Origin: a virus
Lineage: Duplodnaviria; Caudoviricetes
Strand: one strand, 5' to 3'
IMG/VR virus record: IMGVR_UViG_3300037067_015270
Coordinates: 32,001-96,000 of that record
DNA length: 64,000 bases
This document shows positions 52,027 to 57,450 of this stretch, in pieces; positions within the stretch are counted from its first letter, which is position 1, and the number at the start of each line of letters is the position of its first letter. A program made the translations under genes and the position numbers. The notes beneath the pieces were generated by a model. It made no database searches and had not been told where the DNA came from. It saw only the letters and a list, made by a program, of their open reading frames with translations.

Positions 52027-52842
52027 TTACCAGTCTCCGCCAGACCCACCCCCGCCAAAATCGCCACTACCGCCAGAGTAGCTACTATCACTACTGCTGC
52101 CTCCGCTACTACCCCCACTACCAGCAATGTCGCTGATCACACTACAAATACCGCCACCGCCACTATTGGATACTACTATAGCAATGATAATCAGGATGAC
52201 AATTGCTATGAGTATGATCGTAGCGATACCCCAACCGGTAAGCCAAAAACTAACCGCTGCGGCCCCTGCAACTGCACTAGCCGCAGCGAGCGGGGTCGTG
52301 GATTTTTGTTCAGCTTCCGCCCGCCCTTCAATACGGGTTAGCATAGCATTGATAGCTACTTCGATTCCACCAGCATAGTTTCCAGCCTTGAATTGTGGTT
52401 TAACTTGCTCAGCGAGAATACGGCGACAGACAACATCGGTCAGCTTGTCGCCAATACCACGGCCAGTAGTAATCCATGTTTTGTGTTCTTTGACCGCGAT
52501 GACAAATAGAACGCCATTGTCCTTATCCTTTTGGCCAAGTTTCCATGACTTGGCAGTTTCAATAGCGAATTGGCTGATATCCCTGCCATTCAATGTTGAA
52601 ACAGTAAGAATGACGATCTGATTGCCGGTTTTCTTCTCATATGCAAGAAGAGAATCGCTAAGACTCTTGACTTGGGCCTCGGTGAGAATCTTAGCATCGT
52701 CGTTCACCGGCCCACGCAGAGTTGGTATAAAAGAAGCGGCGCGTGCTTTCTGAATCGCCGGAATCAGCAATCCAGCCAGAATGCCGATAATGGCGATGAC
52801 TACAAGTAATTCGACGAGTGTAAAACCATGTTTGCGTTTCAT
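52027..52842 (-). CDS. TPM (YgcG) domain protein with a prepilin-type N-terminal cleavage/methylation leader
   Basis: Leader [32 protein letters not shown] domain VNDDAKIL...[13 protein letters not shown]...GRG...[14 protein letters not shown] helix and [13 protein letters not shown] tail. Confidence 0.85.
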
Positions 52843-53069
52843 TCTTCTCCTCCACAGCCTCCTAGAAATGGGGTAGTAACGGTTGTATAGCCTTTCGCGA
52901 CAGATTGATACAGACGCAGCCCTTGCCTTAAAATCTGTTCCGGCGTAAGTTCTGTCGTCTTACACAACTCGTCGATAGCCGCAGCTTCTTCTGGTGTTGC
53001 GTGGAATTCGATAACCACCATTTTAGTGGAGCCTCCGACGAACCTCAGTTTATGAATTAGACCAGACAC
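52839..53069 (-). CDS. Small ribbon-helix-helix-like protein
   Basis: [24 protein letters not shown]. Confidence 0.45.
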
Positions 53070-53672
53070 CTAGAATTCCACTTTCGGTGCCGTCTTTGCA
53101 GCTTCGACTGCCTCGAAGTTAGCCCATTTCTTGAAGCCGTGGCTGTTGGCTACTATACCAGAAAACAAGCCACCAATTGTGATATTTTGTTCCTTGACCG
53201 CTTTGTTATATCGGTCGCGCTCTTCCTTAATACGATTCTCGGTACCTTCAAGCTGCGATTGGAGGTCCTTGAAATTCTCGTTAGCCTTCAATTCAGGATA
53301 CTTCTCCTGTACCACCATCAAGCGAGACAAGGCCGACGACAGATCACCTTGGGCCTCTGCAAACTTCTTCATCTGAGCAGGATCAGCAGAAGCCGCGTTA
53401 ATATTGATCTGTCCGACCTTCGCCCGAGCATTAGTGACGTTCGTGAAGGTATCTTGCTCGTGCTTCGCGTAGCCCTTCACGACACTGACGAGGTTTGGAA
53501 TGAGATCGAGCCGCCGTTGGAGAGCAGATCCGACGTTAGCAAGCTTCTCTTCGCAGGTGTTATTGCCGACGTTGAGAGAACTATAGCAGCTCCACCACGA
53601 CAGACCGGCGATGACGACGATTAGTAATACGACACCAACAAGACCCAATGCAGCCCAAAGACAACCCTTCAT
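53070..53672 (-). CDS. lemA: LemA family protein
   Basis: QRRLDLIPNLV..VKGYAKHE and EKYPELKANENFKDLQSQLEGTENRI. Confidence 0.92.
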   Translation of the reverse strand: MKGCLWAALGLVGVVLLIVVIAGLSWWSCYSSLNVGNNTCEEKLANVGSALQRRLDLIPNLVSVVKGYAKHEQDTFTNVTNARAKVGQININAASADPAQMKKFAEAQGDLSSALSRLMVVQEKYPELKANENFKDLQSQLEGTENRIKEERDRYNKAVKEQNITIGGLFSGIVANSHGFKKWANFEAVEAAKTAPKVEF

Positions 53673-53857: not shown

Positions 53858-54430
53858 TCAGTTTTGTGGTCGTATGCCGTCCTGTGGCCCCTGCTTAGTT
53901 TGCGACGTCTTCGCTGCTTGTTCATTGAACAGCGACAAGGTATTACCAATTGGTATTCCACCGACATTTGCCTTGGTAACGGCACTTTCGATCTTCTTGA
54001 TGCTACTGGACTCGCTGATGTGAGACATGACACCGAAGATGCTTGCATAGGCACAAGCTTCAATCTTCTGCTCATCGGTTAGTTTATCAAAATGCATTAC
54101 AGCAATCTTCTCACGTCCGCATCGCGCTTTCCTGCGCATCGACTTCATATCACCACGCCGTTTGATGAGATTGTCCTCTCCCATCATATTGCGGAAGCAA
54201 CGAGCATACCGGTCCCAGTCAATATATACATTGTAATCTTGCAGCAAATGCTTCTTAGCTGTCGTGATGCTTCCATACTTGACAGGCTGGCCGATTGCAG
54301 CACTCAACTCCTCCTTGGTGACACTCTTCTCGGGAGTATCCAAACCCCTGAACATAGCGATGACCGTTCGTGTCGCCTCGCTCATGACCTTGATTGGTTG
54401 TCGTGGTGGTACGAATTGTGCTTCTGACAT
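53858..54430 (-). CDS. Hypothetical protein, candidate accessory factor of the RAMP/array system (winged-helix-like N-terminus)
   Basis: 190 aa. Lies between array units and the terminator. VTKEELSAAIGQPV. Confidence 0.6.
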   Translation of the reverse strand: MSEAQFVPPRQPIKVMSEATRTVIAMFRGLDTPEKSVTKEELSAAIGQPVKYGSITTAKKHLLQDYNVYIDWDRYARCFRNMMGEDNLIKRRGDMKSMRRKARCGREKIAVMHFDKLTDEQKIEACAYASIFGVMSHISESSSIKKIESAVTKANVGGIPIGNTLSLFNEQAAKTSQTKQGPQDGIRPQN

Positions 54431-54481
54431 CTCATAACCCTTTCAATTAGTGATGAAACATAAACAGTACTCAGTAAGGAC

Positions 54482-54856
54482 GCTTGTGTTGTCGTGTGGA
54501 GGCTAATCCGGTCACGTCTCGTCTTGACATGGCCAGTGCAGATCTTTGTGTTCGGCGAGTCACTGCTCACCGGGTTATCGAGTCCCGTCAAATTGAATGA
54601 ATGATTGCAAACGAATCTCGTGTTGTGCGGTTGGATCGTGTACCGTGCGGTAACGTTGAGTCATAACATGTCAGGACGCAAGTTGTCATATCGTAAGCTG
54701 TCGCATCGCGTACTGGATCAATCATACAAAAATATCCTCCACCGGTCAATTGACCGGTGGAGGCTCGTGTTATCGGGTCACATTCCGACTAATTCGGTCA
54801 TATCAAGACCCGTACTGTCTCGTGCCATCGAGGCACATGCTGGCGCGATGCGTCAG
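54482..54856 (-). ncRNA. Three pentamer-periodic candidate guide units downstream of the RAMP gene (54486-54596, 54620-54719, 54767-54856)
   Basis: On +, RYN-NN pentamers in register after a GCTT/ATCTC/GCTC leader, e.g. gtg tt atc gg gtc ac att cc gac ta att cg gtc at. Confidence 0.75.
54728..54763 (-). terminator. Perfect 28 bp palindrome followed by a U-tract
   Basis: CCTCCACCGGTCAATTGACCGGTGGAGG (54736-54763), then ATATTTTT on the minus strand. Confidence 0.7.
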
Positions 54857-55452
54857 TCCTGCTTCACCCAGGTCAGTTTCTCGACACTGAACCGACCGTA
54901 ATAGCCGTTATTGCGCGGGCGGAAGAAGCCGATACCGATGAACCGACCGGCTTCTTGGATGTGCTTCAGGAAGATCTCCTCGGTAATCGACTCTTCCAAG
55001 ATGTGGAATACGACGTCCACTTCCCAATTGTTGATGATCGGGAAGCACTTCCAAACGCGCTTGCTGCCGCCGCGTTTGCCGTCGCTGGGCACATACAACC
55101 AAATGCTCTCGACGTTCTCGGCGATATCGGGCAAGACGATCGGTTCGGGGTCGACCAAGGTACCGGCCTCGAAGTACTTCGTATACGTCGCCTTGCCTTT
55201 GCCCGGCACTTGCATCGACAGGTATTTCGCCGCCTCGGCAAGACAATTCTTGAACGCCATCGGCGGGATGAAGACGTGACCGGCGTTGGGGCCGTCCTTC
55301 ATGATATGGAGCCGATTGCGCCAGGTCCGCTTCTCGTAGTCATCCGGTCGCTCCTTGTCGTTCTTCGGGACGTCCATGACGTAGTTGCGACTTTGGCCGT
55401 AGGGCGAGACACCTTTCAGACGAACAGTAGCAGTAATCATAGTAGCATTCAC
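54853..55452 (-). CDS. Stand-alone RAMP (Cas7-like) protein
   Basis: First strand VRLKGVSP, HVFIPPMAFKNCLAEAA (cf. IPGSSLKG) and C-terminal Gly-rich loop GRFIGIGFFRPRNNGYYGRF. The start may be the ATG at 55440. Confidence 0.8.
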   Translation of the reverse strand: MNATMITATVRLKGVSPYGQSRNYVMDVPKNDKERPDDYEKRTWRNRLHIMKDGPNAGHVFIPPMAFKNCLAEAAKYLSMQVPGKGKATYTKYFEAGTLVDPEPIVLPDIAENVESIWLYVPSDGKRGGSKRVWKCFPIINNWEVDVVFHILEESITEEIFLKHIQEAGRFIGIGFFRPRNNGYYGRFSVEKLTWVKQD

Positions 55453-55656
55453 TCCAGTAACATAGGGTTAGAAAGAAAGTAACAGAGAAACAGAAGCTTG
55501 TCTTGATCTATCACATTCAGGGCGGACTAATCTGATCATGTCTAAGCCCGAGCGGGTAGTAGATCGTGTGTTCGATGTTTGGAAAATAGCGCTTGTCATG
55601 TCAAATACCGTCTCAGGTGGGCGTGGCCGGTACTGGGCCGTTCCGCCGCATACTTG

Positions 55657-55685
55657 GTTATAGCACCAATGAAGTGTGTTCTTAA
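55657..55685 (-). promoter_or_regulatory. Promoter TTAAGA-N17-TATAAC (extended -10) for an array unit
   Basis: Exact 17 nt spacing, GTGC immediately before -10. Confidence 0.65.
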
Positions 55686-55773
55686 TTACAAATGAAGCTT
55701 GTCGCGTCGTGTCAGGTTGAATTCGGTGCTGTCATGTCATGGCCCGTCAAAATTGGTCTTGTCGAGCCGATGT

Positions 55774-55802
55774 GTTATAGCACCAGCGAAGCGATTTATT
55801 AA
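55774..55802 (-). promoter_or_regulatory. Promoter TTAATA-N17-TATAAC for an array unit
   Basis: Exact 17 nt spacing, GTGC before -10. Confidence 0.65.
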
Positions 55803-55907
55803 TTGCAAAAGCTTGTCTTGTCATAAGCTGTCGAGTCCCACCTTGTAATGTCGGAGATCGTCGGTACTCGAAGCGGCCTGTCGTGCCGCGTCTGGTCGCG
55901 TCTAGCT

Positions 55908-55936
55908 GTTGTAGCACAAACGAAGTGATTTATTGA
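55908..55936 (-). promoter_or_regulatory. Promoter TCAATA-N17-TACAAC for an array unit
   Basis: Same layout as its neighbours. Confidence 0.55.
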
Positions 55937-56499
55937 TTACAGGTATCGAGATAACACGTTGCAGTTTTTGATATATTGTTAGTGAATCAATGATGTTCGT
56001 TAGAGCGATAGTCGCGGCGATTAAGCCATCAGATCACAGTATAGCTGTCCGGGTCTAGACGTTATTATTTCCATGTTGTAAATGAAGCTCGTGTTGTCCC
56101 GTCGCAAAGCGTCGAGTCCCGACCGGGACTGGGGCGTCTGGTACTAACTTGACCAGTCCGGGTCGCGTCATTGTACTTCGTGAGTATTTGTGTGTATTAT
56201 TTAAAAGCTTGTGTCGTACTGTCCGGTCGTAGCAGAGCATGTGCCGACGAGTCAAGTGCTATCGAGATGAGTCGAAGGCTGTCAAGACGGGCTAATGCTA
56301 GTTTTATAATTGCAATCAAATGAAGCTTGTCTAGTCACGTCGAGTCGGGTCGAGTCTGGGCCGGTCAGGGGCCGTACTATAATGTCATGTCCCAACTGGT
56401 CGAGACGCGACGTGATTTCTTGTGATTTCGAAAAATGAATCTTGTGTTGTCTAATCGAGTAATGTCCCGTCGAGTGCTGTCCCAGCGGGTCATGGGCTG

Positions 56500-56715
56500 T
56501 CAAGGTCGGTCGTGTGTTATCGAGTCGCGTTGCGTCAGATGCCAATTGCCACAGTCTGGGCATTTATATGCCGCCATTCTACTAGTGGTCTCTGCCGACG
56601 ATTTGCTCGGATATTTCACCTTGCCGAGACACCCCTGTAGTCTACGAGCACGATTCTGCATCAACAGCCACTTCTGCTTTCGTCGCTCGGCGGCTGCTGA
56701 CGCAGTATGTTTCAT
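56500..56715 (-). CDS. Small Zn-binding phage protein embedded in the array
   Basis: MKHTAS...CLGKVKY...AYKCPDCGNWHLT motif. Confidence 0.55.
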   Translation of the reverse strand: MKHTASAAAERRKQKWLLMQNRARRLQGCLGKVKYPSKSSAETTSRMAAYKCPDCGNWHLTQRDSITHDRP

Positions 56716-56790
56716 AATCTTTGTCTGGTCGAGTGCTGTCTTGTCAAGTCGAGTCGCGGGGCGACTCGCGCTAACCAGTCTTACTGCTAT

Positions 56791-56819
56791 TTTATAGCAC
56801 AACATCTAGTAGTTATTAA
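56791..56819 (-). promoter_or_regulatory. Promoter TTAATA-N17-TATAAA at the 5' end of the array
   Basis: Exact 17 nt spacing, GTGC before -10. Confidence 0.65.
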
Positions 56820-56826
56820 TTCTAGA

Positions 56827-57087
56827 TCAAGTCTGCCCTGTCAGACGTCGAAATTCAGCTTCGATATCGCATTCTGTTTCAACTGTTTCATAGGCACCAA
56901 TGCTAGTACCTATAAACTCCCTGATTTTGTTCTCAATATCCAATGGAGTCATCGGCGGCTGCCAAGTCGCCTTGTATTCGACCAATTCTTCCCAACACTC
57001 GTTGCAGATATATCTCGTGCCATCGAGGATAAGCCTATCGCACATAACGTTCGGGCAGCTACGTCGATCACAAGCTAATACGCTCAT
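56827..57087 (-). CDS. Small Cys-rich phage protein
   Basis: CDRRSCPNVMCDR...YICNECWEEL. Confidence 0.6.
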   Translation of the reverse strand: MSVLACDRRSCPNVMCDRLILDGTRYICNECWEELVEYKATWQPPMTPLDIENKIREFIGTSIGAYETVETECDIEAEFRRLTGQT

Positions 57088-57090
57088 TTC

Positions 57091-57450
57091 TCAACCTCTT
57101 GGGGATACGCTGTGACGACCGGAAAGCATACCGTCGTCGTCACCAAGCAACCAGAATTGACCGAACTCATTGGTAGAAGTATAGCGATAGCTGAATTCGA
57201 AGTCCGCTGGGTCCAGGCTCACTCGCTGCAAGAACTCAACAATCTGTGCTCGCAGCTTGACCTTAATATCCTCTTCGTCGTTGCCGATCACAGCCTTCCA
57301 ATGCGTGGTCGGATGCTTCGGGACACCAACACAGCCCATTGCCCTTTTGGCATAGGCCACACTGTGCTTCTCATCGTTGATGATGAAGTGGATTTCTTTC
57401 AGAATAGCAACAATCATGATGATTCCTTTTGTTCTGGTGAGCCATACCAC
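57091..57450 (-). CDS. Hypothetical protein
   Basis: ORF in an early operon. Confidence 0.5.
   Translation of the reverse strand: MVWLTRTKGIIMIVAILKEIHFIINDEKHSVAYAKRAMGCVGVPKHPTTHWKAVIGNDEEDIKVKLRAQIVEFLQRVSLDPADFEFSYRYTSTNEFGQFWLLGDDDGMLSGRHSVSPRG

Follow-up and report, generated by a model that had tools for sequence, protein, structure and literature searches.

A pentamer repeat array beside a Vipr homologue in an uncultivated large phage: a candidate VIPR guide gene and its possible ribbon-helix-helix target

The vipr locus and its pentamer array

The locus described here lies in a 122.5 kb virus fragment from the IMG/VR collection, which was estimated by CheckV to be 34% complete; the window, that is, the whole stretch of DNA analysed, covers 64,000 nt of this record, and all positions refer to it. 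The locus is present in groundwater and landfill metagenome runs from several studies, and the available leads to the host of the phage are weak and confined to Pseudomonadota (Atlas). Its central element is a gene for a Cas7-like protein, which is located in the middle of an array of five-nucleotide repeats. The main features are as follows:

53858..54430, minus strand: putative accessory (vap-like) gene, 190 aa, whose homologues lie just downstream of vipr in relatives
54486..56782, minus strand: array of putative vrRNA genes, at least 10 units of 11-21 pentamers each, on both sides of vipr
54615..54714, minus strand: putative vrRNA unit B, whose decode fits the turn and second helix of a ribbon-helix-helix (RHH) domain
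54853..55443, minus strand: vipr, 196 aa, Cas7-like RAMP protein, mid-array
56202..56215, minus strand: 3' handle of unit A, reading gaCAC aaGCU and then a U-run in RNA sense
56216..56295, minus strand: putative guide region of unit A, 16 NN-GAY pentamers in RNA sense, with Y third in every pentamer
56306..56333, minus strand: promoter-like sequence TAGACA-16-AATTAT (TG-extended), just upstream of unit A

VIPR (Viral Interference Programmable Repeat), a DNA-silencing system that resembles CRISPR, was first described in 2026, mostly from elements of Enterobacteria and Pseudomonas. As set out in the text of the original report, the system comprises a Cas7-like Vipr protein of roughly 200 aa and vrRNAs made up of 9-16 pentamers, each composed of a GGY triplet and a hypervariable dinucleotide (NN), with a conserved 3' tail at the end; only the NN pairs with double-stranded DNA, one target base is skipped per unit, and the skipped base corresponds to the codon wobble position in natural targets (10.64898/2026.04.26.720920). 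The filament and triplex structures are the subject of a companion paper (10.64898/2026.04.26.720927), and the silencing of a satellite's recombinase gene is the subject of a third.

Several lines of evidence relate the 196-aa ORF to this family. It matched PDB chain 36pp_D, entitled 'SUSP1 Vipr protein' (phmmer, E 1.6e-6), the phiSUSP1 protein ALH47069 with 39% identity over 66 aa including the G-loop (BLASTP, E 3e-12), and phrog_4652. An AF2 model of this Vipr homologue, built on 21 relatives, reached a pLDDT of 91.5, and its best PDB matches in Foldseek were type VII Cas7 and type III Csm3 (E 6e-9 to 1e-6). Exact look-up of the Vipr protein and of P0006 returned no identical record.

The 190-aa accessory gene downstream of vipr was also found in related loci (L006, L013/L068 and L119-L124). 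In the AF2 model of its product, residues 20-85 have a pLDDT of 83-94 and a topology of three helices followed by a beta-hairpin (H-H-H-beta-hairpin), and the N-terminal domain is predicted to be a winged helix; Foldseek returned only weak matches to MarR, ArsR, Zalpha and ScpB proteins (E >= 4e-3). No nuclease signature was detected in the accessory protein, nor any similarity to vap1 of SUSP1, and judging from the model it looks like a DNA binder rather than a nuclease. Since nothing suggests a nuclease, silencing would be likelier than cutting as the outcome of this system.

Further along the minus strand, an operon of lemA, a small ORF and a TPM gene (52027-53672) is conserved in four relatives (L119-L121 and L124). 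The leader of the TPM protein had initially been taken for a Planctomycete DUF1559 leader; it is actually type IV pilin-like, and the homologue in relatives carries the Pfam domain N_methyl. The small ORF (52839-53069) is weakly RHH-like (RHH_1, 18.8 bits), and this RHH-like ORF of the phage itself is unrelated to the decode of unit A discussed below.

The repeats are defined by their spacing. Between 54400 and 56850, GTC-GTC distances of 5, 10, 15, 20, 25 and 30 occur 19-27 times each, as against 0-3 times for other distances, and no such period-5 GTC signal was found elsewhere in the 64,000-nt window. A logo of 143 pentamers from nine units reads N N G(68%) A(71%) Y(99.3%) in RNA sense; the third triplet base is a pyrimidine in 142 of the 143, and the composition of the NN positions is near even. 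The units are separate genes with an internal period of 5 nt, and most of them keep the same short end (aaGAC or aaCAC, then aaGCU and a U-run), in which no conserved fold was detected. Tandem Repeats Finder left the array undetected because only three of the five positions repeat, and neither an Rfam family nor CRISPR-type direct repeats with unique spacers could be found in 54000-57200.

A few elements of the region differ from this general pattern. A 21-pentamer unit (54752-54856, minus strand) starts at the stop codon of vipr, and a strong terminator hairpin (54736-54763) takes the place of the AAGCUU handle at its end; this unit may represent a vrRNA co-transcribed with vipr, and the same arrangement, with different NN, occurs in two relatives (L123 and L124). 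Between two array units (56500-56715, minus strand) there is an ORF of 71 aa whose product has a zinc-ribbon-like motif, C-x2-C ... W-H; it matches phrog_15216, a family of unknown function (E 4.8e-6), and no homologue of it was found at 62 related vipr loci. At 1080-1700, a local excess of GAC arises from a long and imperfect coding repeat rich in GGCGA(C/T), which is unrelated to the VIPR array.

Variation among strains was also detected within the array. Contigs of three runs join across 54549-54730, 55667-55907 and 56004-56318 at similar depth, which indicates a co-occurring related strain without, or with replaced, whole vrRNA units; the joint 54549>54730 corresponds to a strain without unit B, and the joint 56004>56318 to one without the stretch that holds unit A. 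Unit A is 100% identical in contigs of two studies. Judging from these contigs, vrRNA units look like exchangeable cassettes that may be gained and lost.

Structure, orientation and decoding of unit A

Unit A (56211-56295) consists of 17 head-to-tail pentamers, each of which is composed, on the plus strand, of a triplet and then an NN: GTGtc GTAct GTCcg GTCgt AGCag AGCat GTGcc GACga GTCaa GTGct ATCga GATga GTCga AGGct GTCaa GACgg GCTaa. The dinucleotide series that had been given for it in the initial annotation (TC CT CG GT AG AT CC GA AA CT GA GA GA CT AA GG AA) is exactly the one present. The first triplet base on the plus strand, which is the pyrimidine position of the RNA-sense triplet, is a purine in 17/17 pentamers, and the probability of this by chance is roughly 8e-6 if each position is assigned about 0.5. 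Read in RNA sense, from the minus strand, the unit is thus a run of NN-GAY pentamers. It is the most degenerate unit in the array, with 5/17 triplets exactly GTC/GAC and the lowest repeat score.

The flanks of the unit bear on its orientation. In RNA sense, unit A ends in agTAC gaCAC aaGCU UUU, the counterpart of the 'aaGAC/aaCAC aaGCU U-run' end of the other units, and AAGCUU is itself made up of the terminal pentamer (aa-GCU), which follows aa-GAC or aa-CAC. Because AAGCUU and a U/A-rich end lie 3' of the repeats on the minus strand, the RNA is assigned to that strand. From the promoter-like site, an RNA start at about 56296-56300 is predicted; the number of promoter-like sites was not above that in shuffles, and the site of unit A is a consensus match only. 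Taken together, these sequence features suggest that unit A is probably transcribed from the minus strand, in the sense of vipr, and from its own promoter. A stable fold was absent from the unit A RNA (z -0.48), as would be expected for a protein-bound guide.

The decoding used in the initial annotation, in which NN are read as codon positions 1 and 2 and the wobble base is skipped, coincides with the '1 nt skip' rule published for VIPR. Under this rule, unit A decodes to (S) L R V (S/R) I P (D/E)(K/N) L (D/E)(D/E)(D/E) L (K/N) G (K/N). The first plus-strand dinucleotide (tc) stands where the handle of other units has its conserved 'aa', and for this reason the S at the start is probably part of the handle and not of the guide; the target-sense NN of the guide (plus strand) would then be CT CG GT AG AT CC GA AA CT GA GA GA CT AA GG AA. 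Unit B decodes to (S)(F/L) R G V P R T (D/E)(I/M)(I/M)(R/S) A (F/L)(I/M) V L A A L, and the unit at 55815 to L D P F (I/M) G S G S A, which is methyltransferase motif I. All recognisable decodes in the array share one direction, with the RNA antisense to the coding strand.

Closer relatives of the locus (L119-L124) carry units homologous to three array units, and no homologues of units A and B were found among them. The NN differences in these homologous units translate into conservative changes, such as (F/L) to L to V in G I L K R V x x A A x P; together with the motif encoded by the unit at 55815, these changes justify the reading of plus-strand NN as codon positions 1 and 2 at this locus. 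In comparisons with L119 and L123, the guides at 56439-56543, 56324-56413 and 54486-54540 differ from their homologues at few NN positions, and homologous guides seem to track orthologous targets.

The ribbon-helix-helix reading and its alternatives

A Vipr homologue with a Cas7/Csm3 fold stands beside the repeats, and unit A is therefore interpreted as a vrRNA gene of a VIPR system. We hold with high confidence that 56211-56295 is the body of such a gene. A second and separate question is what the guide is aimed at. In the initial annotation, unit A had been read as the strand and first helix of an RHH regulator, and it had been proposed that this unit and the one at 54615/54620 might cover two parts of one RHH gene.

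For the evaluation of these proposals, an RHH profile was constructed from 43 RHH_1 domains from genomes, after a profile of 14 sequences had shown too little power and been replaced; guides were scored as codon-family classes, with permutations of each guide's dinucleotides as the null (3000 shuffles for unit A). The best ungapped register of unit A was the expected one, in which its proline falls on that of the profile and its leucines fall on helix A, and this part of the proposal held; the score by itself was weak (6.9 bits, p 0.034 before correction for 18 unit/orientation tests, and not significant after it). Unit B was best placed on the G-x-R-S/T-E-I-I-R turn and helix B (5.3 bits, p 0.034), or, with one gap allowed, reached 10 bits (p 0.007).

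The joint result is stronger. The two registers abut, unit A covering profile positions 4-20 and unit B starting at 22, with a gap of one codon. A followed by B ranked at the top of 288 ordered unit/orientation pairs (12.2 bits, the next reaching 7.0), and the score rose to 18.6 bits when handle positions were left out. Among 40,000 double shuffles, four reached the A-to-B score (p about 1e-4), corresponding to about p 0.03 after Bonferroni correction over the 288 pairs; this joint test is not fully independent, because the pair had been chosen by eye as RHH-like in the initial annotation. A search of Pfam with the A+B decode joined by a two-residue linker returned RHH_1 as the sole family (E 8.6e-4, 19.6 bits against a cut-off of 20.5); with a longer linker, 16.8 of the 19.6 bits were left, contributed by B alone. 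Single units, which are too short for such a search, returned nothing in Pfam, and neither did the reversed, reverse-complemented and shuffled A+B controls. The proposal that A and B are aimed at the same RHH gene is thus plausible and statistically supported by sequence comparison, and not conclusive.

Natural targets were sought in several collections by exact-match scans only, using either the full pattern or exact seeds; the published criterion for a natural VIPR target is an NN match of only >=80% under the 1-nt skip rule. In IMG/VR viral contigs, no matches were obtained with the full 17-dinucleotide pattern of unit A, with its dinucleotides 2-10, or with dinucleotides 3-11 of unit B; dinucleotides 5-13 of unit A gave one match (L001), which extends to 10/17 only. 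The 12-dinucleotide core of unit A (dinucleotides 4-15) had no match in GTDB genomes or in JGI metagenomes. The ten metagenome matches of dinucleotides 2-10 each reach only 9-11/17, and most of them lie in frames with nearby stops. Moreover, no self-target of unit A at >=70% of the read bases was found in its own 122.5 kb record, no target of any array unit was found in the 54 IMG/VR vipr loci (+/-6 kb), and no guide was common to the array and its 62 vipr relatives. The matching RHH gene, beyond chance, that the initial annotation had anticipated did not appear in the exact-seed scans, and the second part of its proposal, a single RHH gene covered by both units, was likewise left without a natural target in spite of the top rank of the pair. 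Since no target gene was found, the RHH target stays unproven; targets with mismatches in every seed would be missed by such scans, and so their failure is not decisive.

On this evidence, which consists of the repeat anatomy, the homology and fold of Vipr, the orientation, the lack of a self-target and the joint RHH-likeness of the two units, the explanation that we favour as a whole, a VIPR vrRNA with a probable RHH target, appears reasonably probable; for the RHH target taken separately, the chances seem about even or slightly better. The course of events outlined next, from expression and filament formation to silencing, is inferred for this locus, and so is the identity of the target. The minus strand would give rise to an RNA of about 16 NN-GAY pentamers with a short handle (aaCAC/aaGAC aaGCU and a U-run). 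By analogy with SUSP1, Vipr protomers would polymerise along this RNA, each of them holding one GAY triplet and presenting one NN pair, and the resulting filament would bind double-stranded DNA in an NNxNNx reading and silence transcription. Unit A would most likely be aimed at the beta-strand and first helix of the gene for an RHH regulator or antitoxin in a competing mobile element. Unit B would pair one to three codons further downstream in that gene, over its turn and second helix. If two guides do tile one RHH gene, this would represent a natural case in which VIPR guides act cooperatively or redundantly on one small gene for a repressor or antitoxin.

An alternative that we consider rather unlikely is that unit A is a functional vrRNA whose target is not an RHH gene, the likeness being due to chance or to selection by the reader, and the true target being an unrelated gene or a non-coding site. 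It is consistent with the modest and uncorrected score of unit A alone, which adds about 3 bits to the Pfam score, with the lack of RHH genes matched in exact-seed scans of the collections, and with the fact that comparable single-unit p values are reached by other units in overhanging registers that have no meaning (u55701, with p 0.003 at offset 34, is one such case). The register of unit A, on the other hand, is the biologically expected one, with P on P and L on the hydrophobic positions of helix A, and its abutment with unit B by one codon, the first place of this pair among the 288 and the rarity of its score among the shuffles all argue for a common RHH target. Another reading, that unit A was once a vrRNA gene but is now decaying or inactive, its triplets having drifted until Vipr no longer assembles on it, is improbable. 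The scarcity of exact GAC triplets, the lowest repeat score, the 'ga' in the handle where other units have 'aa' and the strain without unit A (joint 56004>56318, in three runs) would fit with decay. Against this, the third-position pyrimidine, which is the most conserved feature of the array, is kept in every pentamer, the register is unbroken over 85 nt, the promoter-like site and the AAGCUU/U-run end are intact, and the unit is identical in the contigs from two studies; furthermore, internal degeneracy is described as frequent in working vrRNAs in the text of the original report (10.64898/2026.04.26.720920).

It was also considered whether the pentamers might not be guides at all but either DNA iterons bound by a protein or an RNA sponge for a ring protein similar to TRAP, since their triplets, with two variable bases in between, resemble the sites bound by TRAP. 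This idea was dropped when the homology of Vipr was found, and it now appears extremely improbable: the array surrounds the gene for a Vipr homologue, related vipr loci carry similar repeats (all but one of the IMG/VR loci checked), homologous units differ mainly in their NN, and VIPR has been characterised both biochemically and structurally (10.64898/2026.04.26.720920; 10.64898/2026.04.26.720927). Within the favoured explanation, namely a VIPR vrRNA with a probable RHH target, a broader possibility can be envisaged. Units A and B, from opposite ends of the array, would be aimed head-to-tail at one complete RHH domain of roughly 40 codons, and a third guide corresponds to methyltransferase motif I, so that the guides of this huge phage might be aimed at the most conserved, fold-defining segments of protein families and not at particular genes. 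We regard this as speculative and quite unlikely; if it were true, one small array could silence whole classes of competitors' regulators.

Related loci and comparison with known systems

Related vipr genes were identified at 54 IMG/VR loci and at 8 loci in GTDB MAGs, and Vipr relatives occur in MAGs of many phyla. Period-5 repeats accompany vipr in all but one of the IMG/VR loci that were checked. Where relatives use the canonical GGC triplet, their repeats have the sense of vipr, and C-AAGG with a U-run or a hairpin comes after them; relatives with GTC or GAC triplets show the same layout. Within the Vipr clade, relatives with 40-65% identity use GGC, CGC, GTC, GTT, GGT, CTC/CTT or GAC, depending on the locus (L002-L055 and L068-L075), and the middle base of the triplet therefore varies within the clade. 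Across the clade, the first two triplet bases vary and the final pyrimidine is constant. This pattern suggests that Vipr and its RNA triplet co-vary, and a triplet that changes from clade to clade among the 62 vipr loci bears on how Vipr reads RNA. Both the kind of system and the decoding rule have already been published; what is new here is a locus with the variant GAY triplet, which extends the logic of VIPR to an uncultivated large phage with at least 10 guide genes.

With respect to the domain family proposed as the target, RHH_1 (PF01402; CopG/Arc/MetJ), the A+B decode aligns to model positions 3-33 of 39, with a Pfam score below the gathering cut-off and with no real RHH gene matched. 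Class 1 CRISPR systems (type I Cascade, type III Csm/Cmr and type VII) share with the locus the Cas7/Csm3 RAMP fold and, by analogy, would also share a filament on the guide RNA and a periodically interrupted base pairing. Unlike them, the locus is devoid of a repeat/spacer array, cas genes and an adaptation module, and each guide has a gene of its own; in addition, pairing in VIPR involves 2 in 5 guide bases and 2 in 3 target bases, whereas it involves 5 in 6 in Class 1 CRISPR.

The closest known system is type II VIPR, represented by Escherichia phage SUSP1 and a Pseudomonas fulva prophage (10.64898/2026.04.26.720920; PDB 36pp). Several differences separate the two. The consensus triplet here is G-A-Y (YNNGA) in place of the published, canonical G-G-Y (YNNGG), and GAY is not among the alternative repeats named in the text of that report (NNNGG, YNNNG and NNNNG; 10.64898/2026.04.26.720920). 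Moreover, the array contains at least 10 units as compared with 4 in SUSP1, its units end in the short 'aaGAC aaGCU U-run' where SUSP1 has a structured tail with a pseudoknot, and the N-terminal two thirds of the present Vipr could not be aligned to that of SUSP1 by BLASTP. On the other hand, in both cases vipr is phage-borne, encodes a Cas7-like protein of about 200 aa and is flanked by vrRNA genes; across the C-terminal G-loop region the two proteins are 39% identical. They also share pentamers composed of a conserved, pyrimidine-ending triplet and a hypervariable NN, followed by a conserved 3' end, and NN that decode as codon positions 1 and 2 of protein genes. Finally, a small gene without nuclease motifs, which at the present locus is a putative accessory gene, accompanies vipr in both, and a self-target is lacking in both, as is described for real VIPR systems in the text of the original report (10.64898/2026.04.26.720920).
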